A stretch of DNA of 64,000 nt from Ascidiella aspersa. Taxonomy: Eukaryota. This document shows positions 4,710-63,906 of the stretch, piece after piece. Position 1 is the first letter of the stretch. The number at the start of each line of letters is the position of its first letter. The translations under genes and the position numbers were made by a program. Under the pieces are notes generated by a model. That model saw nothing but the letters and a program-made list of their open reading frames with translations, searched no databases and had not been told where the DNA came from. The stretch lies in contig OZ004609.1 in assembly GCA_963924565.1 (NCBI GenBank), positions 24,056,001 to 24,120,000 of the forward strand, in the 5' to 3' direction.

Positions 4710-4852
4710 TAAATAATAACTAACAGGACTGCATAAAAACCAGAATGTTCATGTTAGTTTGAAATATTTACTAAAAATATACATGAAATAAGCTATTGTT
4801 GCCAGGCATAATATATAACGGAGTGTTGCTCTTCCAGCAGAATATATAATAG

Positions 4853-4894
4853 ATCGACATTTCGACGTGCTGTACAGAACGTCTTCATCAGGAT
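4853..4894 (-). ncRNA. Minimal type-I hammerhead ribozyme motif (GAAAU variant)
   Basis: Reverse complement reads atc-CTGATGA-a-GACGT(tctgtacagc)ACGTC-GAAAT-GTC-gat, with a 5-bp stem II. Confidence 0.55.
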
Positions 4895-4969
4895 ATTAAA
4901 TTAAATATTTAATCGCACGAATTGTTACTTTTTGATTTATAAGGAATCTGTTTTACATGTAACGTCAGT

Positions 4970-5011
4970 ATCCTGATGAAGACTTTCTGTATAGCACGTC
5001 GAAACGTCGAT
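4970..5011 (+). ncRNA. Minimal type-I hammerhead ribozyme motif
   Basis: atc-CTGATGA-a-GAC(tttctgtatagcac)GTC-GAAAC-GTC-gat: 3-bp stem I, stem II closing pairs, and palindromic ACGT in place of helix III. Confidence 0.65.
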
Positions 5012-5173
5012 CTATTATATATTCTGCTGGAAGAGCAACACTCCGTTATAAAAATATACATGTTAGGCTATTTTTAGTGTTTACCAATAAAATTATCAAA
5101 AACATAATACATTTTAAACGTATAAAAAGTGATAGACTCAATGCGTTAGATATTGTAAACAAATGTACAGCTA

Positions 5174-8100
5174 TCACACATGACACAATTTTAACAAATA
5201 ATTAGCGTTTACGGTAAACTTAGATGCATTTTTAAAACCATTATTCGTAAAGTTAGAATTTCTAAAATCAATGTCTTTATTCGCAACAGAAATCCTTGTC
5301 AGAAAATACCAAACGGCATCTGCATCAATTTTGATAAGGTTAGTGTAAAGTTTAACTGCATCGTTTTGCAACTCCTTATCACAATCTGAACTCAGGTACT
5401 CCCAAGATGCCAGTAACACATTATGAAAGTGGTCAAAGGTTATATGAATGTTGAGGAGTAGTGGGCCCAATTTACAAAGAACGTTATGCAAAAGTTTAAA
5501 AAGAGTTGAATGATGATACACAAGTTTAGAGGAATTAGATTTCATAGAAAGAGATTTTGCAGTGCTTGATTTGATCAATTTTACAAGTTGCGGAAGTACA
5601 TCTTTGGTGAAGCGTCTCCGAATAAAATCGCCGGCTGCATTAGTCATGATGCAAACCACATCAAATGAATAGGACACCACCTAGTATATATATTAACACA
5701 GGTAAAGGTAAAGTTTTAAAGCTAAATTGGGTAATGTGAATCTCTATAGTTTCTATATAATCAAACTATTTATATTTATATTGTCTACAAAGTTATAGCA
5801 TCCTGATTATTTGTACGTATAAACTAAAATTTATAATAGTATTATAAAAATTAACCATTAAAGCGCCCATATTATCACCTGCAATTCAGTGTCAGTAAAG
5901 CGAACCATCAGAGGTGACCAAAGTTTGTGCACCAAAGGTAAGAGTATGTTTTCATGTCTTTTCAGAGCTGAAATACCCTCAAACAAAATCTCCATAACCA
6001 GAAGCCGAATTCTTGGATTTTCATTTGCCATGAGATTACAACATCTCTCCATTACACATTGTACCACCTGAATTTCTGCAGGGGTTTTTGGTTCTGTATC
6101 ACTTTCATCCACAATTGGTTCATTGTCGATTTTAGCTTGATTATCAGTTTCGTCCTCACAACTGTCTTCAAAGTTTGTTGAGGCCAGTTTGTTCTTGTGG
6201 AGTTCTAACAAGGAGACCAATACATCTTCCGGTAAAAGTTTAAAACTAGTTTCAGTTGTTTTATGAGACGGGGGTTTTTCAACAGACATGTCCAATTTAA
6301 ACCAATTCTTTATTGATTTCACAAGTGTGAGCAAAACATAAAGAAATGCCAATAAATGTTTATGCTGTTGTCGATGTAAATCCAAAGCGTCAAGAACCTC
6401 AGTAATGCTGTCCCGGATTAAATAAAACACAGACTTATCACTGTGCAAAATCATTGCTTGTAGAACAGTTGAACATCTGAAATTAAAACACTGGAAACTT
6501 AAATTGTGAATAGTTTTAAAAAAATAACTAGAAAAAACATAGTCTACAATCGGTGGGTTGCATAAGCTGTCCTAATAACAGCAGCATAAAAAACAAAGCA
6601 ATTTAAAATTATCTAGACGAATTTAGCAGAATAAGTAATAAATACCTGGGAAATAAAGAAATGTGATGAAGCTGGATGGAGATGGTGCTTACTAAGTAAT
6701 CAGCATTTTGACAAAGCAGCATAGACACATTGTTATATTCACAATTTTTTGCTATAGCTTGAAGTGAACTAACTGCACAGCTCGATACCATCAAGTTAGT
6801 GTCTAAAACTTTTTCCAAAACAGGGTAAAGAGCAACAATCAAATTTGGGCGAAAATGTAAACCCAATACTTGAGAAAATGTTGAAATTGCCTCAATAAGT
6901 ATGCAGGCCAATAAGACATTGCTTTTAATTGTGAGTGGTGAGACTTTCCTGCTTGTAGCAACACTTTTATCGATAACACACACACTGTTATTTGGTCTCC
7001 ATGAATGGTTAGTTAAAAGGTAGTCAGATTCGAAACCAGTAACCAAATACCAATTCTCTGTAGAAGTGTAAACTTCCAACAAGTTAGAAATCAAAGTTGG
7101 CAAGTTTTGTGTATCATGGCGATTAAGTGTTCCCAAAAGAATCTCATTTAAAAGAAGAACAGCTTCAATCTTTGTGCTTTCGAGTGTGTATGACTGGTAT
7201 AACAAATCAAACATGACATCTATCTCCCCATACTGACCTAACAAACGACAAATTTTTATCAAAGTTGTAACGATGGATAAGTCTGTAAAGTTTTTGAATA
7301 CCTTTTTAAAATGCCAATTAGAAAATTGACCATGAAACATTGGTGCTTGTAGTGAATTGTGTTGGACCGCAAGGGGAGTAATACCATCTGTTTCAGCAGA
7401 ACTTGAAACATCAACTTTAAAACAAAACATCAGGGCATTTAAGAGTTTCTCAATCTGGATTGAAGAATAAAATAATGGTTTTAGATTGGATTTTAACACA
7501 GACAAATAGCCAAGCATTAGTTGTAAAGATTTAACTTTGTCATCATCTGAAAAGCGGATAAGGTTTTTCGGCAAGTTGTTGCAATGGTTAAATAATAAGT
7601 CTTCTACAGTGTCCTTCACTTGTTGTGGCAACTCTAATCCGATCAATGAAATTGCTGATTGGCTGGCTTCTGAAACTGATGGTTGCTCATCATGTAGTAA
7701 CTGTAGTATGCCCTTTAGTAGCGTTGCAACACAATTTGGTAATGTGTTAGTACAAGAAAACAATACGTCTTTACAAAATGAGACCAACGCCAAGCGCACA
7801 TAACCGTTTGGGTTTTGTGAAACAGCAATTATTCGTTGTAGCACAATCTCAACCTTTGAGGCCACACTTTCAACCCATTTATCATCCCTTATTTTTCTTA
7901 AATGTTCAAGTTGTTTTATTCCCTTGAAATTAATTTCATCAGTTAAGCAACGGAATTCCTTGTTTGAAGATATAGCGATGGACTTATCCCCAAGAACAAC
8001 ATCTAGGCACGTTGAAACAACCTTCAATGCTTTGCATTTGACTGTATGGCCCAACTTCTGTTCACCCAACAAAACCTTTGAAACACCAGATAAAATTCCC

Positions 8101-8723
8101 GGCATAAGGGAGCAGAAACAATCACCAATGAGCAGCCCTAAAAGATCTTTTTCATTTTCCAACATATTATGACAGTATTCCGGACTCAAGATGTGTAACA
8201 ATACGGACAATGCTGCAATCTTAACAGGTCTGTGGTCATGTAGCATGGCATCAAGGCATATTGTGACCAAATGGCCTAGTAGCGGCAAGTTTCTAAAAGA
8301 ATAAAAGTTTTTCCAAATAGTTGCTATTCCTTGATTTACTAACTTATCAATGCACAAGAGTGTTGAAAGAACTAGTTCCTCACTGCCAGATAGTTTAATA
8401 GTGCCATCCTGAGGATTGGATATGCATAACAGCAATGCCTTAACTATGTCATCCACAAGATTCCATTCTTTTACATTTGACTTAGTAAATACTTCATTAA
8501 GGCATTTTTGTGCCTGAATAATCTGTTCTTCTTTACTTAAACCCTTTTGCAAGATGATGCGCAAGGGGAATACAAGGTATTCATGTAAATTTTGAATGAT
8601 ATTCGAGTCAAATATCTTGATTAAGTTTTGAAGTTGAACCATAGACTTCACATTTTGTGTTTTCATAACCTCAACACAAACCGGCCTTAAGACAGAAAAT
8701 GCAGATTTATCATCAGAATGCAT
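5174..8723 (-). CDS. TTI1: TELO2-interacting protein 1 homolog (TTT complex, HEAT repeats), 3 coding exons, ~1060 aa
   Basis: Exons 8723-6646, 6476-5879, 5680-5174 join with GT-AG introns (3183 nt). Motifs AFSVLRPVCV, LHEYLVFPLRIIL, QNADYLVSTIS, LLPLVHKLWSPL, GDFIRRRFTKDVLPQL and DADAVW are characteristic of TTI1. A probable 5' UTR intron runs from a donor at ~9320 to an acceptor at ~8757. Confidence 0.92.
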
Positions 8724-9564
8724 TATTTATTACCAAATAAAATATTTTATACATTGCTGTAAATAAAAAAGAAATGTTTTAGAGTTTTGTTATCAGTGTC
8801 AATATTGCAATTTTATCAATTTGTGTTGCCTGCTTTAATAAACTAGCAATGTTTTTTTAATTTTTTCAAGAAATAACATATTTTTGCAAGCTACTAGCTT
8901 TTGCAAATAAAAGATTGATAAGTTTTTTTTAACCTATGATAAAATACCTGGATTAATTTTTCGGCCTTTGCAGGAGCTACAAATAAACGGTATTTGTGTA
9001 ATTCTTTATATATTTTTTTTAAATATTTTTATTGGTAGTTACTCAATTGGTAGTTTGCTATTTATCGAATTATGTTGTTGACCATGAACAATTAACATGA
9101 GTATTCTACAATAGTCCTAAAAAGCAATATAGAACTGTGGTGGCCTTGGGATTTCCTTTTCAAATGATTTTGTTTTACATAGTTTGGAAAACCTTGTAAT
9201 AGATACTGCAATTATTTGTAGTAGTTCGGTATTCATGCGTAACGTGTTGCTAATTCTGCGTTTTATGCAAAGTTGCTTTCGGCTTTAGATTCATGAATTA
9301 CTATGTATTTCCTTACTTACCTTGATATTCCTGAATTCTATGATACTATCACTGCTAAGTTTTTTTCAACTTACAAATCTAGATTTATACATAAAACATT
9401 TTTTGTGTAAACAAATGCTGACACGTCTCAATGATTTTTCGATGTTGTAATGCCTGAGTAAACACAAGTCCAATACAATGTTTACATATAAGTTTTCTAC
9501 TGTGTTTTACGCGTTGTAATATTACTCTGTTTACGATCGATACCAAACGTAAAACGCCAATAAA
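8724..9564. promoter_or_regulatory. Divergent (bidirectional) promoter region shared by TTI1 and ANKRD27
   Basis: The start codons face apart, 841 bp from each other. A minus-strand GTAAGT donor at ~9320 puts the TTI1 non-coding first exon within ~250 bp of the ANKRD27 ATG. CpGs are retained locally at ~9230-9570, against CpG-poor flanks. Confidence 0.6.
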
Positions 9565-12500
9565 ATGGAGTCGTATGACGAGGATCTAACCCAAAATGGT
9601 TGGTACATTTCATTATTTCAAAAACATGAAGATTTATATGCAAGGGCGACCAATGAAAGATGGATGGTAGGTTATCGGCAACTGTGGAAAGTATGGCAAG
9701 TGCACCCGCGAGATTTTTTCAACCGTTTAACAGTGCACCCCGAAAAAATCTGAACTGCACCCAAAATATGTGAAACACTTGTGCGGAATACGTTTACACT
9801 GCAATGTATGCAATACAGAGTGCATCGGAAAATCATAAAGTGCACCCGAGATCCACTTTTTTACCTTTGTTGCACCTGGTCACTCGTATTTTTTCAAACT
9901 TCCCCCCCGAGAGATTTCGTCGAGATCTGCCATACTTTCCAGCAGTGGTTATCGTTTATTTGTATAATATAATTAACTTTTCGTTCTATATGTAATGAAG
10001 TACTGACGTTTTTTGTATGTAATTGTGGCATATAATTTTTTTTTTTATTTAGATATGCATCCCGCAACAAGGCACTTGGAAACCAGGTTTTGATGATGGT
10101 GATTTATTTTCACAAAAGTATTTTGAATCTCATATGTTAAAGCCTGTTGTAGTTTACTCCAGTGAAAATAGTAATGTGGAATCAACCCACCAAACCAATT
10201 TTGTTACATTTAATGGAAAGGCTAGTAGATATTTAAAATTTTAGTTTATTGGCATGTTTACAATTTAATTGCAGGTTTCTGGGAAAACAATTATCTCTAG
10301 TTATATATTAACAGGCCTTGACAGTGTAGCAATAATTGGCGTTTTGTAATTGCTAATGCTCATAAGCATCTAGTTCCTATGATATAGCCTAGTTTTATTA
10401 TAGGTGTGTGTCAAAATTTTGCACAAGGGAGACGATTTTGCAGCTGGAAATAGCGCGGCTGTAATAACATTTCCGTCCAAATTTGCACGGCTGTTGTGAC
10501 ATTATTTGTAAAGTTTGCACCACTGAAAGTGGAGTACTATACTGAAAACCATTAGTGCATTTTAAGTTGATTTTACATGAAATGTGTGGCTATGACCGTG
10601 GCCTGGCGGGAAACTGTGTGGGGGATTTATGCTTACTTTGCAAACCTGGCCTTACTTTCCAACCTGGGATTCACATAACATTTTCATAAAGGGCCAGACA
10701 ACTGTAACGATTAAGGATCCAAGGTTTAGATTTAAAATTTTGTTTCAAACTTATTTAACTTTATTATTATTTAACTAAGAAAACATTAAATAAAAAATTC
10801 AAATTATATTTTATTTTTTTAAATATAAAATGAGATTTATGAAATCGCCATCAAAATTTAGTTTGTATGTTTCCTGATAAATTTCTCGTTGATAAACTTT
10901 TAATAATTTTATTTTGGGATCACTCCATTTGTTAAGTTATATGGTGTTTTTATTACACTGTTTTATGTGAAAATACTCCTTTTTGCAGGAAGTGCACATT
11001 GAAGGTTCTAAAATAAACTGTGGAAGTGGATTTAGCAATAAATTTCAAAAACCATCTTATGATACTCGTAGTGAGACTTTAGATCTTCAAGTAGAATCAT
11101 GCCATTCGTCAGAGATACTCTTTGAAGAGACATTTTTCAATCAAAATGATGAAAGCTATATTGTTTTATGTATTTCACAGCCATTGGAGCCGGACCTTGT
11201 ATTGCAAAAAAGTTTGTTTACCGTGTTTTTTACTTTATATTTGTATACTTGGTTTCACTAATAGTGGAAAACAATTTGATTTTTATACAACCTTATTTCA
11301 TTTTGTCTGCCTATAGTTTTATGCTAAGAATTTACATTTTTTGTGGGGATCGGAAAATTCTTATTCATGAAGACAATACAGTTATAAACTAAAACGGAAT
11401 ATATATTATAATATCAAAAACACTATATTTATACCTAAATAATATTAATACTTGAATAATATTGTTACATATTTCTTTGCACATTTTAAGAAAATGTGTT
11501 TCAACATTTAATTAGTGAATTTTTGGTATTTATAGAGAGAAATGACATAGAGGATGATGAAACACAAGCCAACAAAGAAGCAACATCAGTTTGGGAAACT
11601 TATGGTTCATTTATCTGGAGTAAAGCAAGCAATGGGACACGATGCCGAAACTTAGTCAATGACAAAGTCAATCTGTTCATTTCGGACCAGAAAAATGCTC
11701 CTTACTCTTATACACTCATGGGAAAAAATGAACAAGCTGCTGCTAAGGAAATAAAATCCACTTCAGTTAGTTTTTTGTGTGTTCCCTTATCTTCCTTTGG
11801 TTTTTAATTGGTGTACAACATGTCTGTTTCCATTTGAAGCCCGAAGTTATTTAACAAAAATTATCTGTTTTTTACATTTTTTATATGTAAAAATGTGGTC
11901 TTATAATGCTCAATTTAAAAAAAACAATGGTGAAAATAACGGCCCAAATAGACATAAAAAGCGACATGCTTTATTATTCAAACGTTTCGGCAAATGCTCA
12001 TGCCATCATCAGTGATATAGCATGTCGCTTTTTATGTCTATTTGGGCCGTTATTTTCACCATTAAACTTAAGATCCGTATATAGTGTTTTAAAAAAAAAC
12101 AATGTTTATACATTTTTAGGACAAAGCAGTAGATTTGCTGACCACATGTTTCAACCTGCTTCATAAAGATTTAAAATTAGTAAGTTTTGCTGTTTTTAAG
12201 ATCTAAGTGTGTTATATATTTGTGGTATATAAAAATTTACCTTTTTTCAACAGAGAAAGTACTGTGAGCAACCCGCACAATATGAAGAATTTCGAACAGC
12301 TTTAGAAGTAGGTTAAATTGCAAATAAGTCCAAAACTATACTAAAACTTAATAGAATGTATATAATAACTATATTTGCAAAAAAATGCCTTTGCATTTTA
12401 TATTATTTTAATTTTAAACCCTGGTTTCATGTTTTGTTTTTTATTCTTTTTGTAGAACTATGTACAACATGACATTCATGATGTTGTTATGAACAAACTT

Positions 12501-15500
12501 AATGACCTTCTTTCATTTAAGGTGTGTATACTATAAAGATCAGTAGTTAAAAATATTAAATCTTTGTTATTAGTGTATATGTATTGATCTTAATTTTAAA
12601 TTCTATAAAAGTGTTGTTTTTTCAGGATTGTTTTTTGAATAAGATAACCCGAAGCCTTTCCAGCATTCGTTTAGCAGATCTTGGAATCCAAGAACGGTTT
12701 AGGTAACAGTTAAATATTTTTTTTTATTTGTTTATTATCCTTTGGTTGCTTAGTAGGGTTGTCTTATTTCATTTTTCAAATTTTTATTCCAAATTTTATT
12801 ATCAGTATTTTTAAATTTACAAAATTGTTGAATCTAAGACAAGTAAGAATCCAATTAAACTGGTATGGAATCATGCTTTTTTGAACTAAAAGGTGCTTAA
12901 CTTTAAAATATATTGTGAGCTGAATATTTTAACCTTGGAAACAACCTGCAATGTGGAAAGCTATTTTTGGTTACTTTCCAAAATAAAAATGTTAAAAATA
13001 ACTACATTTTTATCCAACAGCCATTTATAGAAAAATAATACTTCAAAACAGTTCTGTCCTCTCCTGATATTGGTTAACTAAATTGTGCTCTACTGTAATG
13101 CAGTGCTGGCTTACCAAGAGCAAGGCGCGAGTTCTCCAAGCTAAATCATTATTCAACTCCAAAGCAAAAGCTATGCTGTTTGCAGAAAGCACTGATGTTT
13201 ATATCAGAAGAAAGTGTTAATGCCAACAACTTGGGTAGGAATCCATTGTTTAACCTATAAATGTTGAAAAGCTTTGTAGAATATGTTAAAGATAAAAGTG
13301 CTGTGAAATAAAGCCTATATAAAACTGCAGTTTGCGACCCCATTTTGCCCACAGACATGCCTGTGGCCTCTCTAGCTAAATAGCAATATTAGTTTTGTGG
13401 ATTGCTTTGCTTTTTAGTTTTGTGTGACCAGCGACTTTTTTATTGAACAAGTTTGCCCATGCCCACCCCTAGCCTATGCTTTTAAGGCAGCAAAGTTGTA
13501 ATATTTAAGTTAAGTCGTATTTGTATTGGATTTAATAAGTCGATTGTTTAAACTTTCTAGCTGGTGTTCAAAAGGGATCAGCTGGTTTAGAAACAAAGCC
13601 TCAAGGTAAGCCATTCTACATACAGCCAATATTTTACAGTCAAGTTATTAAAATTATTATACTTATACACGTTCATTGATCAGCCTTTGTTGACATGCCA
13701 ATTCCTACAAAATATATAATATACCAAATTAAGTTAAACGTTTTTATGCCTAACATATATTACAAAAACACATTGTTGGTCTAAGATTCTGTTGCGATGT
13801 CATCTGACGACCTTTTACCAACTCTTATATACCTGGTGTTAAAATGCGACGTGGCCAATTGGCTGGCAAACCTGCAGTACCTGAAGTACTTTCAGTTCAC
13901 CGCCACAGCAGGCGATAAGTTGGGGTAAGCCGTTGTTCGGACAACGTGAAAGGAACTAATGGACGTGTTGCGTAAAAACATTACTCTTTGGCTTTTCTCA
14001 ATTTTATTTATTATTAAATACGTTGTAGACAATAAATGTATTTTAAATATGCTTTATTTGCTATAGTTATATCATTTAGGGCTGGAACAAAAATCCTTGG
14101 TTTTCCAGAATCGTAAATGATTTGCTAACTAATTAATTTGCTAGACCGCTGCCCGTCGAAACAAATGTTTTTGGTAAAATAAACACAAAAACAATAGCGA
14201 GAAATGTTAGCATGTCATAAATACGCTGTGTTGTTTTAAAGTGTTGTTGCATGTTGTGTCAGACATGTGCTGCATTAAGTTCTATTTCTCACTGAAAGTT
14301 TTGCCTTCTTCTCCAAACTTTGCATTGCAACTTAAATGCAAAAAAATGAATGTTTTCCTTATAGTAACAACATTCGTTTTTTTTTTTTTTTTTTTGAGAA
14401 AGCGTTTTCAAACGCAACTGTATCTTAAAAAATGTTTGTCTAGGTTTTACCTGGCGACGCTGGAAGCTGCAATCGAGCACGTGAAGAACGACAACATAGA
14501 TTTGGACAACGTGAAGGTGATCGGTTCGTTCAAAATAAACGTATCTGTTCGCCTAACTAAAACCGTTGTTTAAATAATGGTGAACGATATTACCACATCT
14601 CTACGCTTTAAGATTTAAAAAAGAACAGTTTTACATAAATTACCAATACCAGACAAAAAGTCATTCACATTGCTTAACCACCACCTTGATTTCGTTAAGG
14701 TTCTACCACTGAAGCGACAGAACTCAAGTGAAAACGTGGAACAACTACTTCGTCTCTTTATGGTTTGTTGCCGAATTTGTTTTACTTAACCAGCCGAAGC
14801 AGTAGCCGTCGTTGACAAATGGTGTTGTTTGTGAATGTTACGATTTGTATGTGTAACGTAAAATTGACAAAATCACAGGGTACTGCGTAACAGGGCTCTT
14901 AATATTTTTTTATAATTTTGCACGAAAGGACGCATAGGCTACGTAAACGGAACAAACAAAAGAGGCTTTTTACTACCCTTTTTTCACTGTTTTTGCTGTC
15001 ACGTTTAGTTGATTTATTTTGCGATTGCCAGACGACGGTTGTGGCTTGTGAAATGTTTAAAACAAGCAAACTTGTCAGAGGAAGTTTATTGTTGTTCTTG
15101 ACAAAGATGATCGTACTATAGACCAGAGCTTCCCAACCTTTTTCAGTTTGCGACCCACTTTTAATGCAAGTTTTTCTGTGCGACCCACAATTAGTTATTA
15201 CCAAACGAATACAGTTACATAACACCCGCATCTTTACTACTGGCGTACGTACTAAAATAGGTAATGCGACACAACACATCTAATTGTTAAGTATTTGTGA
15301 TATTATTGCATAAATTTTACGTAATGATAATGCAATAATTTCCCGATCTTATATAGCAAACTGCAACATTTAGAAATGCTTCGCGACCCACCTGAAATAG
15401 CTTCACGACACACCAATGGGTCGCAACCCACTGGTTGGGAAGCACTGCTATAGGCAAAACTGAAAATGTGTTTGCGTGATTAGCTGATCCGCGATGGCGA

Positions 15501-18500
15501 CACATCGGGTGTGAGGCGGTTCTTGAGGCAAGCAGAAGCGCTTCGCGACCTGCACGAACACGACAAATGCCATCCTCTGTGCGAATGCCAGAAGTGCTCC
15601 AAGCTGACACAAGGGTATGTTTCGTTCGCGTTTCGTGCACCTTCAATTTCCCACGACATGTTTTCTCTCAAAAGTGGGTTTTTGCAAATATTTGGACGGT
15701 GACAATCAAGAAATACCCATAAAGGCCACAAATACATTTTCATTGTGGCCAATTTGCCCGCAGCCACCATGGTTATTTACTTTAATTTCGCAACCCATAA
15801 CTATTAACGCTAAAGCTCCGTTTCGTTTATAGCGCGCATAACACAGTATATTATATACCTTTATAGACCTGGTAAAAAGGGAGCCAAAGCTGGAGTGAGC
15901 GTTACGACAAGGGATGACCGTGGAAGATGCGCTCTTCACGCTGCTGCCTTGTCAGGTAAACGCAACCCTATACTGTCGTATGGCAGAAAAACTTTAAAGT
16001 TTAAATTTCTGATAACGAGGCCATCCATGATCCATTGATCCATCAACAGCACCCTAATTACTCAGTCAAAAAGTGTTAGTGCTTATTGGCCTTATATTTT
16101 TTATGACTAATTTGTATTAAAGCTTTGTTTAATATTAACATAGGATATATTGGTAGATCTAAATGTTCGATTGTTTTTCAATGGGATTCTAAGTAATCCA
16201 TCACAGTCATTTTATTCATACTTTATCTTTGACAGGCAAGCACGAAGTTGTTGACGTACTTGTTGAATTCGACGCCGACCTCAATGCGACCGACTACCAC
16301 GGTTGTACCCCTTTGCATCTTGCCGCCCAGGAAGGCTCACAGAGCGTAATTGTAGGTGGAGCAAAGTTGTTTGCAAGATTTATGTTTTACTGTTTATCGG
16401 AACACATTCACTTGAACGGAATATGAGTAAACCTGTCTTGACCCCTGCGCATGTTTTAAGAGTTGGTAATTTGTACATAGCTTTCAAAATTTCACAGTAT
16501 TTTACGGATTTCCAGCAGATAATAACACATACAACAAGATCAACTGCTTAAAAACATATAAAAATGTAAAAGAAAGATTCTTGCTTTCGTATCGGATGAA
16601 CTTATCATTTCTTAAAATATTTTTTTAGAAAAATGATTTTACGTCTTATACCTGTTTTTATAAGCTGTCTTAAGATCAAGTAGGAAACAGGAATCATTTT
16701 TTAAAGATTTTTTAAAACAATTTACGATTCCCCCTTTATTGTTCCTCTATAAATTATATCCCAAACATGCTTAAGAAAACCCATAGCCTATACCAGTGGT
16801 CGGGAACCTTTTTAGCTAATGGAGCCATATAAGCCAAGTATTCGTGATTGTATTTTCATGAGAGCCATAGTAAATTGAGCAGGGTCGTTTATTTTGTTCT
16901 CACTTAAAGTATAGGACATGCTATGCACCAAAAATGAATAAGCTTAGTTTGCGCAACTTTGATTGTGGGATTCCCTTAAAAGAATAGGGCCTTTTGGATA
17001 TTAAGAGATTCCTACAAACGGATTCGCGCAAACCGCCGAAAATTTTCCATCATGTGTGTTAGAAAAGGAAAAATACAGTCAAGTTAGAAAAGCGGTCGTG
17101 GTCGCATGCAGTTTTATTTGATACCATGCTTAGAAATGATAGCTTAGATTTTTTTGCAACCAAGATTATTTCATAAAAAAAAAACATATGGCTTCACAAA
17201 AAGAGCCATATATGGCTCGCGAGCCTTACGTTCCCGAACCCTGGCCTATACGCACAATTTTCGCTTTACCTTGCGTATTCCCGAACCTCGTTGCAGTTCC
17301 TCTTGCTGCATCACGGAGCGAACCCGAGCGCTGAAGACAACAACAACAACACGCCCTTGCATCTCGCGTGTCTAGGTGGCCACGAAGGGGTGCGTATTAT
17401 TAAAACTAAACCGTTTATCGTTCGCCACATCACGAAACGTGTCGATTTTCTTGTCTAGTGCGTGAAGGCCCTTCTTTACTTCGACCCCACAGCTGACATC
17501 GTCAAGGTCAATGCGATCAACGATTTGGGGGATTCGCCGCTTCATTTGGCTTCCAAATGGGGTTACGGTTAGTGAATCATTTAATGATTGCATCCCTTTC
17601 ATTAAGAAATTGCGGGAAACGTTCTACAAAATTACGAGTATTGTTTAAAATATTACTTTGTTATTATTTTTGACAATTGATATACAATCACTAGTTACAA
17701 AAAAGGATGGAATAACACCAAAATAAAACTAATTAGTAATAGTAAGGATGACTTTTAAATCGGAATATAACTTGAACAAGATTCACGCAACTCTTACTTA
17801 ACCCAAAATCCACCCCTAACCACCAATAAGCCTTCCAATATTTCCAACGTTAACAAAAGTTATTACCCAACCACTAACCCCAAACACGGGCAAACAGGCC
17901 GGTGCCAAAAATTACTGCGTATCTGGCTTTAATGTGTTGTTTTCTAATGCTATGGTATTATAAATAATCTAGCTTTAGATATTGCCGCTTTATAGGTCTT
18001 ATTGGGTGTTCCCTTTTCTTATTGGTTTAATTGTCGCTTACTTAAATAAAAAAAAATCGTTATATTCTGTCGTTTTTAGTTAAGATCGCTCAAGCTCTTG
18101 TAGAGTATAACGCCGACGTCACTCTCAAAAATCGACGAAAGCTTACACCTCTTGACGTCAGTCATAATTCTGACGTCACTGCCGTTATCAAAGCCAGCGG
18201 CACAGAGACGAACACTATCTCCAGATATATTGAGCCAAAAAGAAAGGTGGGAATTTGTAAAATTTAACGTTATATTTTCTTGTTTGTTTTAAAAATACCT
18301 CAACTATAGGAAAAGTTAAGTTAACGCGAACGTTTTTTAAGATATGATTCAAAGGTTTTCATTTTATTTAGTCAAAGAAAGATCCTAAAAGTTTGAGTTT
18401 ATCGCATCCCAAATTCCTGTCTATTCACAGGTTATATATGGTTTGCCAAACAAAGTATAGCAAAATAAAAACTGCGAAACACTCTACGACCAACATTAGG

Positions 18501-21500
18501 TGTTTTTAATCCGGATTTTGTTTAATTAAAGACGGGACAGTTAACAAATCATGCGACAAAAAACCTTTATGTAGAAATCAAGCTTTCGAAAGTCAACGCT
18601 GTCCAAGAACACCGGGCTGGCGAACGAAGGGACGGCCAAACTCAAGTCGGATCGGCAAAACTGCGACGACCCGAAAAACACCACAAAGCAGGTTTACTGC
18701 AAAAAATTTCAAATTTACTGCAATGCTGGCTTCCGTGGAAATCGTCCTGCGTATTAAACTAGACTAAAATCTCATTGCAACGCAACAAAATGATTACGTT
18801 AGATAAAATAGGACCTGTTTTGATGTTTAAAACGCAATAGGCAGGACTTCCATACCGCCTATTTTTATGAAAAAATCAGAGAAAAAATTCTTATTTATGT
18901 CATCCTTAAACTAGGGTAAAAATAAATTTTATTTTTTAGAAAAACATTTTTTGTCGTTTTTTTATTTGTCCTATTGTTAGTTTTATGACTCCAAACTTCA
19001 ATGCTCTATGTTATTACAATTTTTATAAACATCGGTCATAGAGAACAGGTTGATGTTCAACCGCATTTTTGCAGGAAATAATTAAAATCATTTTTAAATC
19101 TTATTCTCTCTTGTTTTTAAAAGCGAATGCAGTTTGATGGTAACCAAGCTTTAAAAAATATCTGATCGTCTGCCAGGTCGAGAAACTGCTCCGTGCCATC
19201 TCCGACAACGATGCGAACATGCTGTGTTACTTATGTGGTTGGGCTGTAACACCCGGAACCGCTACCCCTGCAAAGTGTCATCCGCTGTGCCAGTGCACCA
19301 AGTGTAAACCTCCATTGTCCGTAAGTGGCGTTTAACTTAAGAACGCCAATGGGTGTTTAGTTTGCTTCTCGTATGCTTATCGCCTATATAGTTTTGTTTT
19401 CTTTCCGTTTACTTATTTTTATCTTGTTTACCAACAGAGATGTTAGATATATTATATTACAGAGTTCCTATATTAGAAGCCACCGCCGACCAAATCCCTA
19501 TCTTAACCGTTATATTCTAATTTCTAAAATTATAATGGGTCGCTTTGCCTTTTTTACATATGCTTTCATATAATTAAATTTTTAAAATTAAAAAGAATAG
19601 TATACTGTTCTTATTCTTGTATTTCTCTAATAACAATATGAAACCAATTTTATTTCCCCCCATTCCTTCCACAGGACCCAGTGCTTCATGCGAATGTGAC
19701 CGGGCCAGACGGCCAGACTCCGCTTTCGTTGGCCTCTAAACTTGGCCACATAGAGGTTGTTGGTCTACTGTTACGTCACAATGCGAAACCCGACGCAAAG
19801 TTACGCAACAACGGTCACACAGCACTGCATCTCGCTTGTCAGTATGGCCACGTCAAGGTAACAATCATATGAACTGTGTCCAACGTTTGTCATAGGCTTT
19901 GTTATAAGGGCTGTATAGGTGAGGGGCACTAAGTAAGGCAAGAAAAAATGTAATGCATGGCAAAGTGTCACGAGTTAACAAAGGATTCTAAAACGTATTG
20001 TACTTGTGTACTGTGTTCTAATGCCCCAAGCTCATTAAATTGATTTTCGCTGTGAATAACATTAAAAAGTTTGAGGTATTTATATTGTAACAACTGCTAA
20101 TGGCCTAAGAAGGGGTAAAATATTTGCAATAAATAGAATTACGTACGGACTTCTTCCCTTTCTTGGCAATTCGAATAGCTAACTTTGTCGTTAAAGTTAC
20201 TGAACGAGAGTTCAATTTGCTAGGTAATCGAATATTTGCTGCGTCACGGCGCGTACTGCGACATCCGGGACAATGAAGGCAACACTCCAATCTTTATGTC
20301 GGCCATGAACGGACACACAAGCTGTATCGCTGTCTTGGCACAGGTATAGTTTGCTGTGAACGGCGCATGTTGCCATAAAACAAAACCGTAAAAAATGTTT
20401 ATTAAAAAAAATAATTCTATTTTTAAAAATAGTTTTCGATTTTAAAAGTATATGTCAATCGGAGATATCTTGCAAAATTACCTAATGCTTTTATTTCATT
20501 AAACCTAAAATCTATATTTAGTAATCCAGTTTTTCTGTCATTATCCAGAACTTAAATTGTTGTTTTTTTGTCGATTTGTTTTGCCATGTTTTTGTAAATG
20601 ACGAATTTCCGTTTTGATCAGCACGGCGCTTCAGTGAATATCCGTAACCGAAAAGGGGATTCCCCGTTGCACGAAGCCGTCAAGTGGAGGCACAGCGACA
20701 CCGTGCGGCTGCTTGACGATCTCGGAGCTGTGGCTTACTATAAGAACAATTTGGGAAAAACTCCAGTGGAACTTTCTGCCACGGTAACTATGTTCTTGTG
20801 TATCCAGCAATCATTGAGCATGGTTAGGTCAAATTTATTGTTCACGTGTATTTTTTAAAAAGGTTTCCATGGTCCACCAGTGAGCCATGGCCCACTGGTT
20901 GATAACCGCTGATTTATGACGTCTTGAACCGTACATTATGTTCACGTTACTTTGTATTACAGTCCATTCAACAAGTAACAGTGTTTATATAATAAAAAAC
21001 ATGTCGGGTACACTATGTACGGATCTGTAACGTAGCTTGATAATAAATTGCAAAGCCAAAAAGGTCGAGTAAATCGACAGCATCTTGATAAAGACGTTTC
21101 GATACGAGCTTGTATCATCTTCAGTTAATGTGACACAAGCTCGTATCGAAACGTCTTAATCAAGATGCTGTCGACCTTTTTGTTTTTACTCGACTTACTC
21201 GACTTTTTTGGCTTTGCAATTTATTATCAAAAAACACGTCGCTTTTACAAAAACAAATTCTTCAGCCAAACTCAAATTTCTTTAACCAAATCCCGATTTA
21301 AAATTTTCACAAGGACCCGGAACTGCAAGAAATTCTAATTTCGCACGCAAGCGGCGTTCACGACGCTAACTCATCGTCTCACGCCAAAACCGGTCACGTG
21401 GAAAGCGCGCCAACCAATCAGGACAGCACACGAAAGAGCATCAGCCAATCAGAGGCCGACGAGGCGCTGGCCGACCAGCTGCTGGATAAGTTCCACAACC

Positions 21501-40000: not shown

Positions 40001-43000
40001 TTAGCAAGCTGAACTACTTTAATTGTGACAAAAGTATGTTGGTATTAGAACTAGCTTAAACAGCCCGACATGAGAATAATTTATCACTCTACAGATACAA
40101 TAGACTTGGATAACTAAAATAAATTTAAAACGCATTTCCAAAGAAATTAAAGTTACCATTCAGTCAACCTTTCAATCTGGAAAATGTTCAAAAAAATGTT
40201 TCACGTAATGCTAAAAAAACTCAAAGCAGTAATTTATATGTAGCGCAGTAATTTCCATGTGTTGTTCTTTAATTCTTATCTTAATATACACGTTTATTAA
40301 CACTTAAACTTAGAGCAAACTTTCAATCACTTATTCCGTATTTTAGGTTGATGAGGGCGCGGCTCTCTGTAAAAAAACAGGTTTCAGGCCTGATCCTGCA
40401 CCTAAAAAAATCCCTCGCCAATAATTAGAAGATTTGAGCGGGCTTTACAGTACCTGCACATTTTAGTAACTGTTATCCGACGCTGCAGGTGGACGACCAA
40501 AAGCGCAAGAAGACGACCCGCGAGGACCTTGGCGTTACGTTGTACGGCGTGCAGACCGAGCTGGCGCGGCAGCAGTCCAATCTTGAGCAGCTTCATGACA
40601 AGCACGCCGCCTCGGCCGAGAAGCGGCGCAACCGCGAAGAGAGCCTGTCCAAGATGCGTGACGTATACAAGCAGGTGCAGAGCCTCGCCACCAAGGAGCG
40701 CCGAAAGAGTAAGTGACGTTGGTTCTTTTCAGGATTCCACACAAGTTTACGTGATTTCGGTGACATCATAAACCCCTTATGGTGTATTTAGAACTGTGAT
40801 TGACAAACTGAGTGTTGCACGGAACATCAGTGTGTCTCATCAGTGTTTTTAAGCGTGCCCCAGAACTTTCATCTAATTATGGAAAGTAACCCATTTGTGT
40901 TACAAATCGGCTACCGGCAAGCACGACTTTAGAGAACAATATGCATTAACATCGTAAATCGCTTCCACATAAGGTAGTGAAACACAACCCAGTGAAAGGT
41001 CTTAGTTTTGAACAAATAATGTCTCCATCACATCATATAAGGTTTTTAGAGATATCATTCGCCTTTCTAAAATAAAAACGCGATGTGCAGCTTTAAGGAG
41101 TGAGTTCTGCGCATTTTGTAACTGAACGTTGTCTGGCACTTGGACTAAATAAGTATTTAGATGTAATTGTTTAATCCAACCGAATTGCTTGTCAAGTTGA
41201 ACCTTCTCGCCATGATAAAACCAATGTATTTTTTGCGAACTGAAAGTTAAACATGACACTAAAAGCTTTGTGCCTTCACGAAAACTCGACAATGTCGTCA
41301 CTCCCTGAAAAGCGGTTGAAATTTTCTGTCAACAGACGCCGAGCTGCAGACGGAGGTGGAGAACCTCTCCACGCGTCTCTTCTACATGCAGAGCGCCAAG
41401 GAGGACATTCGCTCCGACATCGCCGTCATGAAGCGCGCTGCTGAGAAGGCCGAGGTCGAGGTCGGCCAAGCGGAGAGGGACAAGAAGCACCAGGTGCGCT
41501 TTTTTGGTTAAAAAAAAGATACCCTGGGCACTTTTTTTGCAATATACGAAAGCTGATACGCCGCCTCCGCGCCCGCGTCGAATAGTTATGATTACTCTGC
41601 GTTCCAATTTGGATTGAACTTAAAGCGGCTTTAACAGCTATCCAGATATTGCCTTGTGGGCGGCTTGAGCTGTACATATATATTTTTGCTTTTTTTAAAT
41701 AAAATAAACAATAGTGAGACAGTTGTTCACCCGAATCCCTCACCGATGTGAATTTAGTAGGGTATTTGAAGTACATTTTAATTTGGCACCTCCAAGTAAC
41801 TTGTCCTAATGTTATGTAGTCAGGGGCCGTCAAACGAAAAAAAAATGTAATTGAAATTCTAACAATTATAAAAATACAGAGCAATATGTTGGTAAATATG
41901 GTAAATATGCAGGATAAAAAAATATATAAAAAAGGAAACATACTTCTTCGGACGTTTCCACAAGCTTTTTAACCGCCGTTTGCCTTTTTGTTCACAGAAG
42001 CAATACTTTACCGCGTGACAAAATGCGAAAGGGGAAAGTATTAGAAAATTACAAAAGCAAAGAAAACAATATATTCTTAAAACAGATAGAAAGACAATGT
42101 ATCACAACCGTTTGATTTACTTTGTTGGCAGGATCTTCATGTGGCGCGGCTCACGGAACGAGTGGACAACTTGCGTGAGACGATTGCGATGTACGAAGCC
42201 CAGCAATCCGCACAGTCCGAGGAGACCATATCGGCCAAGGAGGCGCTTAGCGAGGCCAAGGACGAAATCGAGGTGCGTTTGTCCTTTGTAATCCAATCCT
42301 TTTTTGTTTGCTGATGTTAAAACTAAATAAAGATTTATTCTAATGTTTAAAATGCTGTCTACCTCTGTATGAGCTTTAAAATTATTACTACGTCTTACTA
42401 CAACCTCCAACCATTACGCTCGAAACTTTATTGTATTGTTTAATGTTAAACGCCTATTTTTAATATGTGTTAAATTGGTAAAGATTAGGTAATTTGCTTT
42501 TAATGCAACTGTACTGCTTTATCATATAACAAAAGAGTTTTAGCAAAATGCGAGTATTTCGTTTCTCAAACAACATTGCAAAAGCAAAAATACAGGATAA
42601 AAAAGTATTACAAATCGTGATTATACGATGTTCAATCCCTTATTTTGCAGGCAATAGAGTTGGAGAAGAAGCAGTTGTACCAACAGTGGAACTCCAGTTT
42701 GATCGGCATGAAGCGTCGCGACGAGGCACACGCCGCAATGCAAGAAGCTCTCAGGTCGGTAACACAGGGTACGCGATTGACGCGCTCTCATAGCTAGAAC
42801 CCGGTAATTTCTTGGTGTTTTACGTAATATTGCAAAGTCCGAGGTCATTACAATTTATAACACTTAATTTTCTTCGTCAATCTTAATACTGTGGTCATCC
42901 GAATATACAATACTCATGGAGTTGTGTGTGTATCTGCCAAAAGTCTAACCGAAAATGGATGATTCCACAGGAAAAAGCAATGGTCATACGGATGTTATGA

Positions 43001-61300: not shown

Positions 61301-63906
61301 TACAGAAAGTTTCGAACTATTTAAATATAAACAACTCCGAAAACCGAAAATTTTAACAATATTCGGGAGTGTCGTGATTGATCATAATTTTTGTCTTCCC
61401 TAGCCACAAGAGTTTCAAAGAAGTGACAAGCGACAATCCGAAAGTGCGGGCAAAGGCAAGCCGTCGCTTGCTCCACTATCTCGTACACGAGTGCGGCCAC
61501 TGCATGGGGCTGAAGCACCCCTTCGAAGAAGGCGAGTTGATTTAGGAAAAGCAATAAATCCTTTATGATTAATTACGCCAAACTATTTATCCACTAACGA
61601 GTGAATTTTGGCATTGATACTGGCCCTTCAAAGCATAGGGTTACTCAATTCACTAGGAAACGACTAAGTGGTTTAGGAAATTGAAAGAACCCCAAAAGTT
61701 GCCATTCAGTTAGATGCCACGGCTATATATTTATAAGGTGAATTTGCTTTATAAAGGTGAATTTTGCTTTTTTTTATAAGGTGAATTTTCTTTTAACAGA
61801 ACAACAATAGAGAAAATTTACAGTCGCCCTTAACATACGACAAACTGTATGTAAATATATCAATATTATGAAATCGCATGAATAGTGCGCATTAAGCCTA
61901 AATGCCTGTGTGTATGTCTATTTGTAATACAAATGACTTACTTTCCAAAATGACCAAAAGTTTTGTGTCGAACTTGATAATCTCACCAGGCACACAGTTT
62001 GGGAATCACCAGGCTAGTCGGTGATCGATCTCGCTGACATGTAACCGGGGCTACAAAATCCGTTTAAAACAACCGATTCCCGTGGCCGACCTTCACATTG
62101 CCGCGTAGTGCATTTTATCAGCGTAACCAAAATTTAGTGGATATACAACAATTCACTCATTTATCCCCATATCGTGGTTGGAACACTCATTTATCCCCAT
62201 ATCGTGGTTGGAAAATATTTCACTTTTACGATTTACAGTGTGCGGCTATATCAGTTTTAACCTTTGCCCCGAGTCGGTAAGCGAGTAGTCTCGAGTAGCG
62301 GTACTCCACTTCCGAGTCCAATGAATTGTCTGCTTGTGCAGGTAATGTAGACTCCATGAGCTGGATGAACTACGCCTGGAAGTATGACGGCTTAAAAAAG
62401 CGCAAAGCCGGCGACTTCTACAAAAACTTCAAATTCACTTTTTCCCGTGAAGAGCTCCTGATCCTTCGCCATCAGCCTGACAAGGTTTGTTTTAAAATGC
62501 TGCTGCACCAATACTGTTTACTCCATGTTGAACCTGGTGATAATAATTTCAGTATAGTTGTTCATTGTGATACCTTTGTACGGACTGAACGGAAAAAGTA
62601 CTATATTATTGCTTTAACTTAAGTGGTTGAAACAAGTAATTGCTATAGATTTCTGTAGACGTAAATTGCTATATATTTCTACATAAAGTCGAAAGCGTAG
62701 AGATTTCCCATAGAATTTTTTACTGGTACATACGTTACAAGATACTAACGCGATTGTTTGAATCGGATTGTTTAGACCAGTGGTTGTTAACCTTTTTCAT
62801 TGCTGCACCCCTTTTAAATCACCAACCAATTCTCGTACTCCCTTCTAAAATTGCTTAAATAACAAAACCATCGTAATTTTATTTATACACAAGTAACTAA
62901 TAACTCAATAAAGCAATACCGAAATGTGAGTTAGTTTTACATTTAATTGAACAAAGAACTAAATTACAGTAATACATTTTCCGTGTCTGACTTAACATTC
63001 CCATACCTCTTGGGGGTGCATGTACCCCTGGTTTAGACTGTGAATTTCAGTATCTTCCTAGCGTTTCGATCTTGAAGAAAATTTTCAAACAATGAACAAC
63101 GTAAACGAGGCTTGCCTTTTTTAGCTATTTAAGCAGGCCTACAAAGAGGCCAACGATGAGGTTTTTGAGTTTGTGCCGCCTTCCAAGTCGGCTCCTCCAG
63201 ACTACCTGGGCGGATACGGATATGAAGATGAAGGTTACGGAAAAGCCGGGTACGGTGAATACGATGACGAGGAAGAGTTGGAGGACGACGACGAACAATA
63301 CGGAGGATACCAGCAGGGCCCAGCTAAGAGGCGCAAAACAGAAGTGAAAGCCAGAGAGGTCGTGTTTGACATTAACACCAAGAAAACGCCCTACAAGAAG
63401 GTACGTTTTTTACGTAATAAAGCAATTTACTTGGGTACACTAGTCACTATGCATGGATCTGTAATGCAGCTTGAGGATAAATTACAAAGGCAAAAAGGTC
63501 GAGTATATTGACATCATCTTTATTGAGACGTTTCGATACGAGCTTGTATCACTGACACTGATGCAATTTATTATAAACAATTTACATAAATAAAATTAAA
63601 CGTTTACCAATTACGCGGTAATGTTGTTGTATGGTAGTACTAGAAGGTAGTTTGTCGTTAGCCCTCACGTTCGCAACTTCAATATAGATGTATTTGCACT
63701 CGGGTTATTCTGCCGCTGCAACAGGTTTAAATTTAAGTTTGCAGTTGGTGTAATGACATTTTAATATTTAAACCCAGGGCGACATCGTTGAACTGCAGAC
63801 CAGCCTGACGAACGTTGGAAAACTGCCAGCAAAGATCGAGGCCAATTTCGAGCCGGGTGGTGGAAATCTTACTGTCTATGTTACTGACCCGCAGGGTTAC
63901 GTTAAG
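55346..63906 (+). CDS. Metzincin-type zinc metallopeptidase resembling uncharacterised bacterial proteins; at least 9 exons, 495 aa within the window, 3' end beyond the window
   Basis: Exons 55346-55397, 57408-57558, 58111-58345, 59328-59507, 60696-60886, 61404-61531 (GC donor), 62342-62484, 63125-63400, 63778-63906 join in frame. HECGHCMGLKH at 61486-61518 (HExxHxxGxxH) is followed by the Met-turn SWMNY. There is no hydrophobic signal peptide. Confidence 0.85.
55458..55630. mobile_element. MITE family with internal telomere-like repeats, copy 3 (clearest ~26-bp TIRs)
   Basis: ggcgctggtatagaatcctaccacat / atgtggtaggattccagaccagcgcc. Confidence 0.8.
56030..57337. mobile_element. Non-autonomous hAT-like element (~1.3 kb) with a probable nested, degenerate hAT MITE at ~56533-57130
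   Basis: TIRs caggcgcggatctagg / cctaggtccgcccctg; TSD ccagtgca/ccagtgcg; gggccatgg at both subtermini. The inner element starts caatggtcggcaacc and carries gcgggcc motifs at both ends. Confidence 0.75.
61731..61788. repeat. Three imperfect tandem copies of ttata(a)aggtgaattt
   Basis: Directly visible triplicated 15-16-nt unit with short spacers. Confidence 0.85.
62154..62213. repeat. Perfect 30-bp tandem duplication
   Basis: cactcatttatccccatatcgtggttggaa x2. Confidence 0.95.
62778..63030. mobile_element. hAT-type MITE with a truncated right TIR
   Basis: Starts cagtggttgttaacc, ends gggggtgcatgtacccctg, and is flanked by a perfect 8-bp repeat gtttagac. Confidence 0.75.
63433..63551. repeat. 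Second, single-arm copy of the 21006-21230 family; hammerhead truncated (no CUGAnGA)
   Basis: gggtacacta...ggatctgtaa...aaaaaggtcgagta...gacgtttcgatacgagcttgtatca is shared with 21006-21117. Confidence 0.8.

Follow-up and report, generated by a model that had tools for sequence, protein, structure and literature searches.

Palindromic hammerhead repeats of Ascidiella aspersa: truncated Penelope-like element ends inserted head to head, probably by priming from both cut ends

Three palindromic repeats, each carrying a minimal hammerhead ribozyme motif, lie within a 64-kb stretch of the Ascidiella aspersa genome (contig OZ004609.1, positions 24,056,001 to 24,120,000; the whole stretch is called "the window" and its first letter is position 1), and each of them is the truncated 3', pseudo-long terminal repeat (pLTR) end of a Penelope-like element (PLE) of the endonuclease-positive (EN+), autonomous type. 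The reading favored here, which we would give a probability of roughly 0.7, is that such a palindrome is a single insertion, consisting of two short, 5'-truncated, ribozyme-bearing PLE ends that stand head to head within one target-site duplication (TSD), both cut ends of the target having likely primed on uncleaved RNA. As ribozymes or as elements the three families are ordinary, being inverted and truncated PLE ends of a known type, and both the ribozyme and the inverted, tailed insertion architecture have already been published; what is added is the statistics of the junctions and a peak of arm 5' ends.

Hammerhead cores and their parent elements

The first-pass annotation of the window had reported three inverted repeats holding minimal cores with short stems I and differing, correctly paired stems II, and this is borne out by a repeat search (element 1, 4814-4895/4969-5050; element 2, 11926-11974/12015-12063; element 3, 21074-21117/21131-21174 and 21037-21077/21190-21230) and by a scan with the descriptor CUGANGA-N-stemII-GAAAYGUH, which returned four complete minimal cores with a paired stem II, all within the three palindromes (two in element 1, one each in elements 2 and 3; Table 1). 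The cores have CUGANGA and GAAA..UH, as minimal type-I hammerheads do, and no helix III; their stems I are 2-3 bp long, and their stems II, which follow one unpaired base and open with a G-C closing pair, change between the families and not within them (GAC(G)U/ACGUC, GGCA/UGCC and GAUAC/GUAUC). The palindromic ACGU at 15.2-16.2 is present in three of the four, the minus-strand core of element 1 reading AUGU instead. Of 300 shuffles of the window, block-wise and dinucleotide-preserving, a single one produced a single match with a stem II of at least 3 bp, and none combined such a stem with a stem I of at least 2 bp. The hammerhead motifs in the three palindromes are real, and exact cores recur in 34/44, 41/57 and 53/80 of the core-spanning arms of families 1, 2 and 3 (the last figure still counting the duplicate locus L483 and lacking L375). 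A fifth descriptor match (39338-39395) has no stem II. The Rfam scan gave no hammerhead model match at E<=1, and its microRNA (miRNA)-type hairpin and small nucleolar RNA matches, all below their gathering scores, were rejected.

The repeats were traced in a genome of 309 Mb in 75 contigs, where exact matches to anchors of 26-32 nt numbered 77, 454 and 459 for families 1, 2 and 3, and those to the reversed controls 0. The first-pass expectation that these are Penelope-type pLTR hammerheads in inverted structures, with linked open reading frames (ORFs) for a reverse transcriptase (RT) and a GIY-YIG nuclease to be found, holds for all three families. Family 1 has an RT and GIY-YIG frame upstream and a pLTR-ORF-pLTR-ORF-pLTR tandem with a period of 2553, its tail coding for the ORF start; family 3 extends 5' into RT and GIY-YIG frames ending PLYLFNT, and family 2 extends likewise, no tandem copies of either having been seen in the loci read. 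The copies grade continuously, by 5' truncation, into the ORF. At one locus (L223, G000:C9:15553500-15562500), a family-2 copy of nearly 4 kb is joined to an inverted copy of 1.2 kb, the tail/no-tail pairing being repeated there at the kilobase scale.

In Pfam, RVT_1 scored above the cut-off for family 3 (L138) and below it for family 1 (E 0.004), the GIY-YIG match of family 1 was weak and below the cut-off (E 0.0035), and families 2 and 3 had no match in their C-terminal parts. The translations show a CCHH motif whose two cysteines lie between GIY and YIG (VYAIPCGECDEIYIG, VYRLKCSCGKTYIG and VYKLSCSCGASYIG, plus H-x3/5-H), and a CX2-5CxxC linker finger ahead of the nuclease is absent from the linkers of families 1-4 as inspected by eye; by the definitions in the consulted portion of PMC8557442, a CCHH motif without a linker zinc finger fits the Penelope/Poseidon clade, where families 1-4 would accordingly be placed. 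No clade names were found among the 120 listed of 318 homologs.

Families 2 and 3 are sisters, judging by the similarity of their products and tails: the C-terminal portions of their parent ORFs show 54.5% identity over 198 aa, each reaches 52-53% identity with the intact ORF of a fourth family, the identity of family 1 with families 2-5 is only 26-33%, and elements 2 and 3 have a tail motif in common (ACAGATCCGT..ATAGTGT). The palindromes had been described beforehand as unrelated, without common sequence, and as three distinct non-autonomous families, neither of which can be maintained, each being the 3' end, in truncated form, of an autonomous-type element, with centers that differ from locus to locus. 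The fourth, sister family has open frames of 848 and 880 aa in a partial tandem (L246, G000:C3:20856000-20861500, and L247, G000:C7:11294000-11299500), and its ORF starts 13 nt past the cut site and reads through the tail as NRSV; because this ORF spans the tail, the motif shared by elements 2 and 3 is explained as N-terminal codons. Family 4 is young (its repeats are 99.7-99.9% identical), has a hammerhead near that of family 2, and has no TATA/initiator match of the kind seen in families 1-3 in its pLTR. A fifth PLE family (L248/L249/L251/L254), with open frames of 816-843 aa and a 2671-bp tandem array, apparently has a hammerhead with a UUGAAAA core (U3-A8 pairing) that the descriptor missed, such a pairing variant being described in the part of PMC4209133 that was consulted.

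Insertion architecture and arm 5' ends

To avoid the bias of palindrome queries, loci were sampled by anchors lying 3' of the core. For family 1, the 77 matches gave 57 loci after second arms had been merged (L437 and L438, presumed duplicates, and five matches in L091/L092 being left out), of which the compound L421, L434 and L458 were dropped, leaving 54; the first 100 of the 454 family-2 matches gave 75 loci (five presumed duplicates spaced by 20 kb and L338 being out), and the first 100 of the 459 family-3 matches gave 86 (two omitted; flank duplicates L374, L472 and L483 dropped). Arms with fewer than ~15 matches are missed by the detection, and copy numbers are those of anchor matches, contig depth not being read as copy number. 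In unit coordinates, 0 is the C of CUGA, and the predicted cut lies before +36 in family 1 and before +32 in families 2 and 3.

Inverted two-arm loci make up 28/54, 54/75 and 53/86 of the samples of families 1, 2 and 3. Arm 3' ends fall into two classes separated by ~28 nt (close to +80/+108 for family 1 and to +89/+118 for families 2 and 3), and the inverted loci combine one tailed with one untailed arm in 27/28, 50/54 and 49/53 cases (126/135 overall), as does each element of the window. Distinct junction pairs were counted in 28/28, 54/54 and 50/53 of them (132/135 overall), many junctions having arm overlaps (microhomology) of 1-9 nt. A TSD of at least 9 bp was present at 32/54, 47/75 and 40/86 loci, with a mode of 12-13, compared with 2/400 in mismatched-flank controls.

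The arm 5' ends were called against four natural references, a single reference having had a subfamily single-nucleotide polymorphism that placed family-3 ends at -2. They peak at -9..-2, with 27/129 arms in family 2 and 37/139 in family 3 (15 of these exactly at -7), the flanking 16 nt holding 7 and 7 arm ends upstream and 16 and 19 downstream in families 2 and 3, and the best 8-nt window elsewhere 15 and 11. About half of the arms that reach the peak stop there (27 vs 29 going beyond in family 2, 37 vs 40 in family 3). A TATA starts at -35 (family 2) or -37 (family 3) and an initiator-type A follows 29-30 nt later, at -6 and -7 respectively, which matches the consensus TATA-to-initiator distance. 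Rotifer pLTRs have a TATA and an initiator as well, according to the consulted part of PMC3846280. A G precedes the arms that start at the initiator A in 7/11 cases vs 8/38 other arms in family 2 (p=0.012) and in 7/14 vs 14/66 in family 3 (p=0.033), an untemplated extra G being accepted in L1/SVA as the sign that a template was capped (PMC4859970, consulted in part). Loose contig ends at 21131 (= -7) number 21 and 29 in two runs from which the genome itself may have been assembled. Beside arms that end at the putative RNA start, fillers (L269, L370 and L384) sometimes repeat the first 4-7 nt of the RNA after a G, as if the RT had copied the end with the cap a second time (2/28 vs 1/89, and 3/39 vs 1/82), which is too few to claim. 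Two earlier candidates were rejected: a fixed 5' start for family 3, suggested by many matches from query position 70, was spurious and arose from the fold-back junction of the query itself, and GTGATATCAC, taken for family-2 upstream sequence, was junction sequence.

A pile-up at the ribozyme cut site was looked for and not found, as no family has an excess of arm ends within 1 nt of it (1/21, 5/29 and 3/22); therefore, the templates appear to have been uncleaved, as they are in vitro. That the peak itself would stem from ribozyme cleavage or from the hammerhead fold (pausing of the RT, or template switching at stem I), and not from the start of the RNA, seems rather unlikely. The peak does adjoin stem I, and in family 2 the UCA at -3..-1 can pair with the UGA at +32..+34, five arms starting at +32 (mostly ambiguous via stem-I microhomology); the cut site, however, is without excess, an RT that moves 3'->5' would presumably pause ahead of a structure and not after it, the family-3 mode at -7 lies beyond stem I, at the initiator A, single-arm copies also stop at the peak, and a structure does not account for the extra G.

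Proposed priming from both cut ends and its alternatives

The inverted arm could also have come from a single priming followed by self-priming, the cDNA or the antisense template folding back and copying itself, the antisense version being a suggestion made in the consulted part of PMC3846280 and the sense-cDNA version having already been disfavored. The microhomology at many junctions speaks for such an origin, as do the subfamily variants common to both arms of a locus (23/25, expected 0.44; 29/29, expected 0.55; and 22/23), which fit one template or one subfamily active at a time. The arm lengths, however, favor two independent primings and leave fold-back unlikely: in 79 of the 123 loci with unequal arms (17, 34 and 28 by family), the untailed arm has extra 5' sequence and the tailed arm extra 3' sequence, and, since each arm thus holds sequence that the other lacks, neither is a fold-back copy of the other and both needed the RNA (the tailed arm is the longer one 5' in the other 44, i.e., 8, 15 and 21). 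Single-arm insertions, too, end at either 3' site about equally (14/12, 10/11 and 17/17). Priming from both cut ends would be the simplest reading because the anole element, as far as the consulted part of PMC11167929 goes, cuts and extends both strands, with two internal start sites bounding its tail.

Self-standing non-autonomous palindromic families, akin to short interspersed nuclear elements or retrozymes and copied as units by a Penelope RT, are an improbable source of these loci. Stubs do far exceed long copies, judging by the 454 and 459 anchor matches of families 2 and 3, and short promoter-bearing copies could serve as templates in trans; moreover, two family-3 loci, L370 (G000:C1:30436366) and L375 (G000:C1:33239145), have an identical center with a 16-nt filler, different flanks, TSDs of their own and the tail on opposite arms. 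Against this stand the distinct centers of 132/135 inverted loci, the continuous 5'-truncation series into the ORF, the lack of retrozyme-type tandem monomer arrays in the loci read, and the fact that the L370/L375 junction has exactly two exact copies genome-wide. A twin-primed re-mobilization of a palindrome with a swap of the tail is possible for this pair; because a loop base distinguishes the two loci in each of the arms, gene conversion is possible as well, as is a parent that has been lost. Almost always, palindromes are built anew at each locus.

That the palindromes are miniature inverted-repeat transposable elements (MITEs) of a DNA transposon with hammerhead-like words by chance, which their shortness, abundance, palindromic form and location in introns or untranslated regions (UTRs) might suggest, is refuted by their direct continuity with RT/GIY-YIG ORFs, the ends being asymmetric, without a fixed terminal inverted repeat, the centers and sizes variable and the TSDs 9-15 bp long; the first-pass annotation had been right to doubt that label.

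Several observations weigh against the insertions having been primed at both cut ends on a capped, uncleaved RNA. No intact ORF was seen for families 1-3, all of the copies read being interrupted; L370 and L375 have one center; and arms of the same variant could instead reflect subfamilies active at different times. As for the RNA start, the -9..-2 window was picked after the data had been seen, the family-3 G test without L375 gives 6/13 (p=0.066), family 1 has the same TATA/initiator spacing yet no peak (2/82 arms at -8..-1), and the promoter of Drosophila Penelope is internal and TATA-less (PMC2377424, in the part consulted). In one RNA run, chosen by its species label and read to ~6 in 100, there was neither a pile-up of read starts at the elements nor any read on the family-4 ORF, the reads over the elements being mostly partial and on both strands; for family 1, the listing had no RNA source.

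With both cut ends priming, the course of events would be as follows: the GIY-YIG nuclease would make a cut staggered by ~13 nt in AT-rich DNA, the RT would use two internal start sites within the first ~80-120 nt past the core, one per cut end (two such sites have been measured for the anole PLE, in the part of PMC11167929 consulted), the cDNAs would stop early or, as often in families 2 and 3, reach the capped RNA 5' end, ~6 nt before the hammerhead, and run off there, and they would then be joined by microhomology or a short filler, the hammerhead being a passenger from the parent pLTR. There is perhaps an even chance that the stubs record the replication cycle of Penelope elements, in which a dimeric RT-endonuclease primes both cut ends at two sites near the uncleaved, capped 5' end, often copying ~95-125 nt to the cap in a strong-stop-like manner, with palindromes occasionally re-mobilized tail-swapped (L370/L375).

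Window elements, published systems and implications

The elements of the window span 4784-5050, 11926-12088 and 21006-21230 (Table 1), which differs from the first-pass boundaries because the tails lie beyond them (with these included, element 1 begins at 4784-4786 and element 2 extends to 12088).

Table 1. Features of the hammerhead-bearing insertions and related stubs in the window; arm limits in unit coordinates.
Feature	Position	Strand	Remark
Element 1, left TSD	4772..4785		TAAAAATATACATG, 14 bp; exact repeat at 5049-5062
Element 1, tailed arm	4784..4895	-	unit -4..+107; tail codes ORF start MPGNNSLF
Element 1, minimal type-I hammerhead core in tailed arm	4856..4891	-	GAAAU-GUC variant
Element 1, filler separating arms	4896..4907		AT-rich
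Element 1, short-ended arm	4908..5050	+	unit -65..+77; TATAAG 4938-4943; initiator-like TCAGT (A at 4967)
Element 1, minimal hammerhead core	4973..5008	+	predicted cut after 5008
Element 1, right TSD	5049..5062		
Element 2, left TSD	11917..11929		AAAAAAAACAATG, 13 bp; exact repeat at 12092-12104; 4-nt overlap with arm end
Element 2, short-ended arm	11926..12019	-	unit -7..+86; 5' end at putative RNA start
Element 2, minimal hammerhead core	11981..12012	-	palindrome apex; predicted cut after GUU
Element 2, tailed arm	12015..12088	+	unit +38..+116; 5-nt deletion in tail; without core
Element 2, right TSD	12092..12104		
Element 3, left TSD	20994..21006		AAAAAACAYGTCG; 8 exact, 13 bp with one mismatch
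Element 3, tailed arm	21006..21134	-	unit -10 (or -7; arms overlap 21131-21134)..+118
Element 3, minimal hammerhead core	21093..21124	-	CUGAAGA
Element 3, short-ended arm	21131..21230	+	unit ~+7/+11..+87; without CUGA; two small internal duplications
Element 3, right TSD	21229..21241		
Second family-3 insertion	63445..63577	-	tailed arm +7..+113 (63445-63551); 16-nt inverted partner (63562-63577); core incomplete
Second family-3 insertion, TSD	63423-63430/63578-63585		CAATTTAC
Decayed 3'-end stub of fifth PLE family	42314..42434	+	83% to L249; outside the main finding

In whole-element folding, both cores of element 1 and that of element 3 are buried in a long hairpin (stem II closing-pair probability 0.000), whereas stem II of element 2 forms at the apex (0.998), helix III being absent; minimum-free-energy folds of dimers did not reproduce the full active hammerhead fold. 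Elements 2 and 3 lie near splice-site-like motifs, and because the surrounding gene is read, from read orientation, as a plus-strand one, their cores would be antisense to it. The hammerheads in these stubs are likely inactive, either buried in a hairpin or antisense to the host gene; the portions consulted of the literature describe no monomer cleavage and weak dimer cleavage for minimal motifs (PMC4209133), as well as cleavage that can need protein (PMC11167929). Element 1 follows the stop codon of a TTI1-like minus-strand gene at a distance of 124 nt and lies upstream of RMD1-like exons; were it part of the 3' UTR, a double-stranded RNA of ~82 bp would result. Other high-copy repeats of the window, seen by contig depth and repeat search (9700-9910, 10480-10650, 15119-15430, 16560-16680, 17020-17190, 20869-20911 and 55455-55633), several with short terminal inverted repeats, are probably true MITEs.

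The comparisons below refer to the portions of the cited works that were consulted. The minimal hammerheads in the pLTRs of metazoan PLEs (Cervera and De la Pena 2014, PMC4209133) have the same type-I core without helix III, the palindromic ACGU, the unpaired base before stem II and the G-C closing pair, with many sequence families per genome, copies mostly single and truncated, and opposite-strand paired motifs 100-700 bp apart; the stems I of 2-3 bp seen here differ from those of 4-5 bp in S. mansoni, and in those portions insertion junctions are not mapped, whereas cleavage was assayed there and the present work is on sequence alone. The published EN+ PLE insertion unit (PMC3846280, PMC8557442), i.e., an inverted 5'-truncated pLTR with a 30-40-bp tail at one end and a TSD, agrees in its head-to-head arms, one of them tailed, and in a pLTR that spans the first ORF codons and has a TATA and an initiator inside, and differs in that the insertions described here are mostly miniatures of 140-270 bp without an ORF.

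The anole Poseidon element PAc, studied in vitro (Frangieh et al. 2024, PMC11167929), likewise has two RT start sites bounding the tail, AT-rich targets, cutting and extension of both DNA strands, and uncleaved RNA as its main template, with no RNA ends at the hammerhead cut; its ORF, in contrast, begins inside the hammerhead, as opposed to 9-46 nt past the cut site here, and run-off at the RNA 5' end is not reported in those portions. Titles and abstract openings in the literature likewise held no report of run-off ends in PLEs, which older subscription work or supplements may describe. In L1 twin priming (PMC4859970), priming from the other cut end also gives an inversion and an extra G marks a capped start, but the L1 arms copy separate parts of the RNA, whereas here both copy the same 3' pLTR segment, their starts lying 28 nt from each other, so that a palindrome results. 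The non-LTR retrozymes (bioRxiv 10.64898/2026.07.22.740005) also have non-coding, PLE-pLTR-derived type-I hammerheads, in tandem direct repeats, unlike the dispersed inverted stubs continuous with parent ORFs seen here.

Palindromes of this kind are easily misfiled as MITEs or, as the Rfam matches illustrate, as miRNA hairpins. Their junction statistics bear on how PLEs make head-to-head repeats and on whether hammerhead cleavage makes the template, and speak for two primings, independent of each other, on RNA that was uncleaved, with exact predictions following for the RNA start (-6/-7) and the RT starts (near +80/+108 and +89/+118). Should the cycle outlined above be true, a strong-stop-like product would explain the excess of tiny hammerhead palindromes over full elements, and the 5' ends of the stubs would map PLE promoters from genomes alone.

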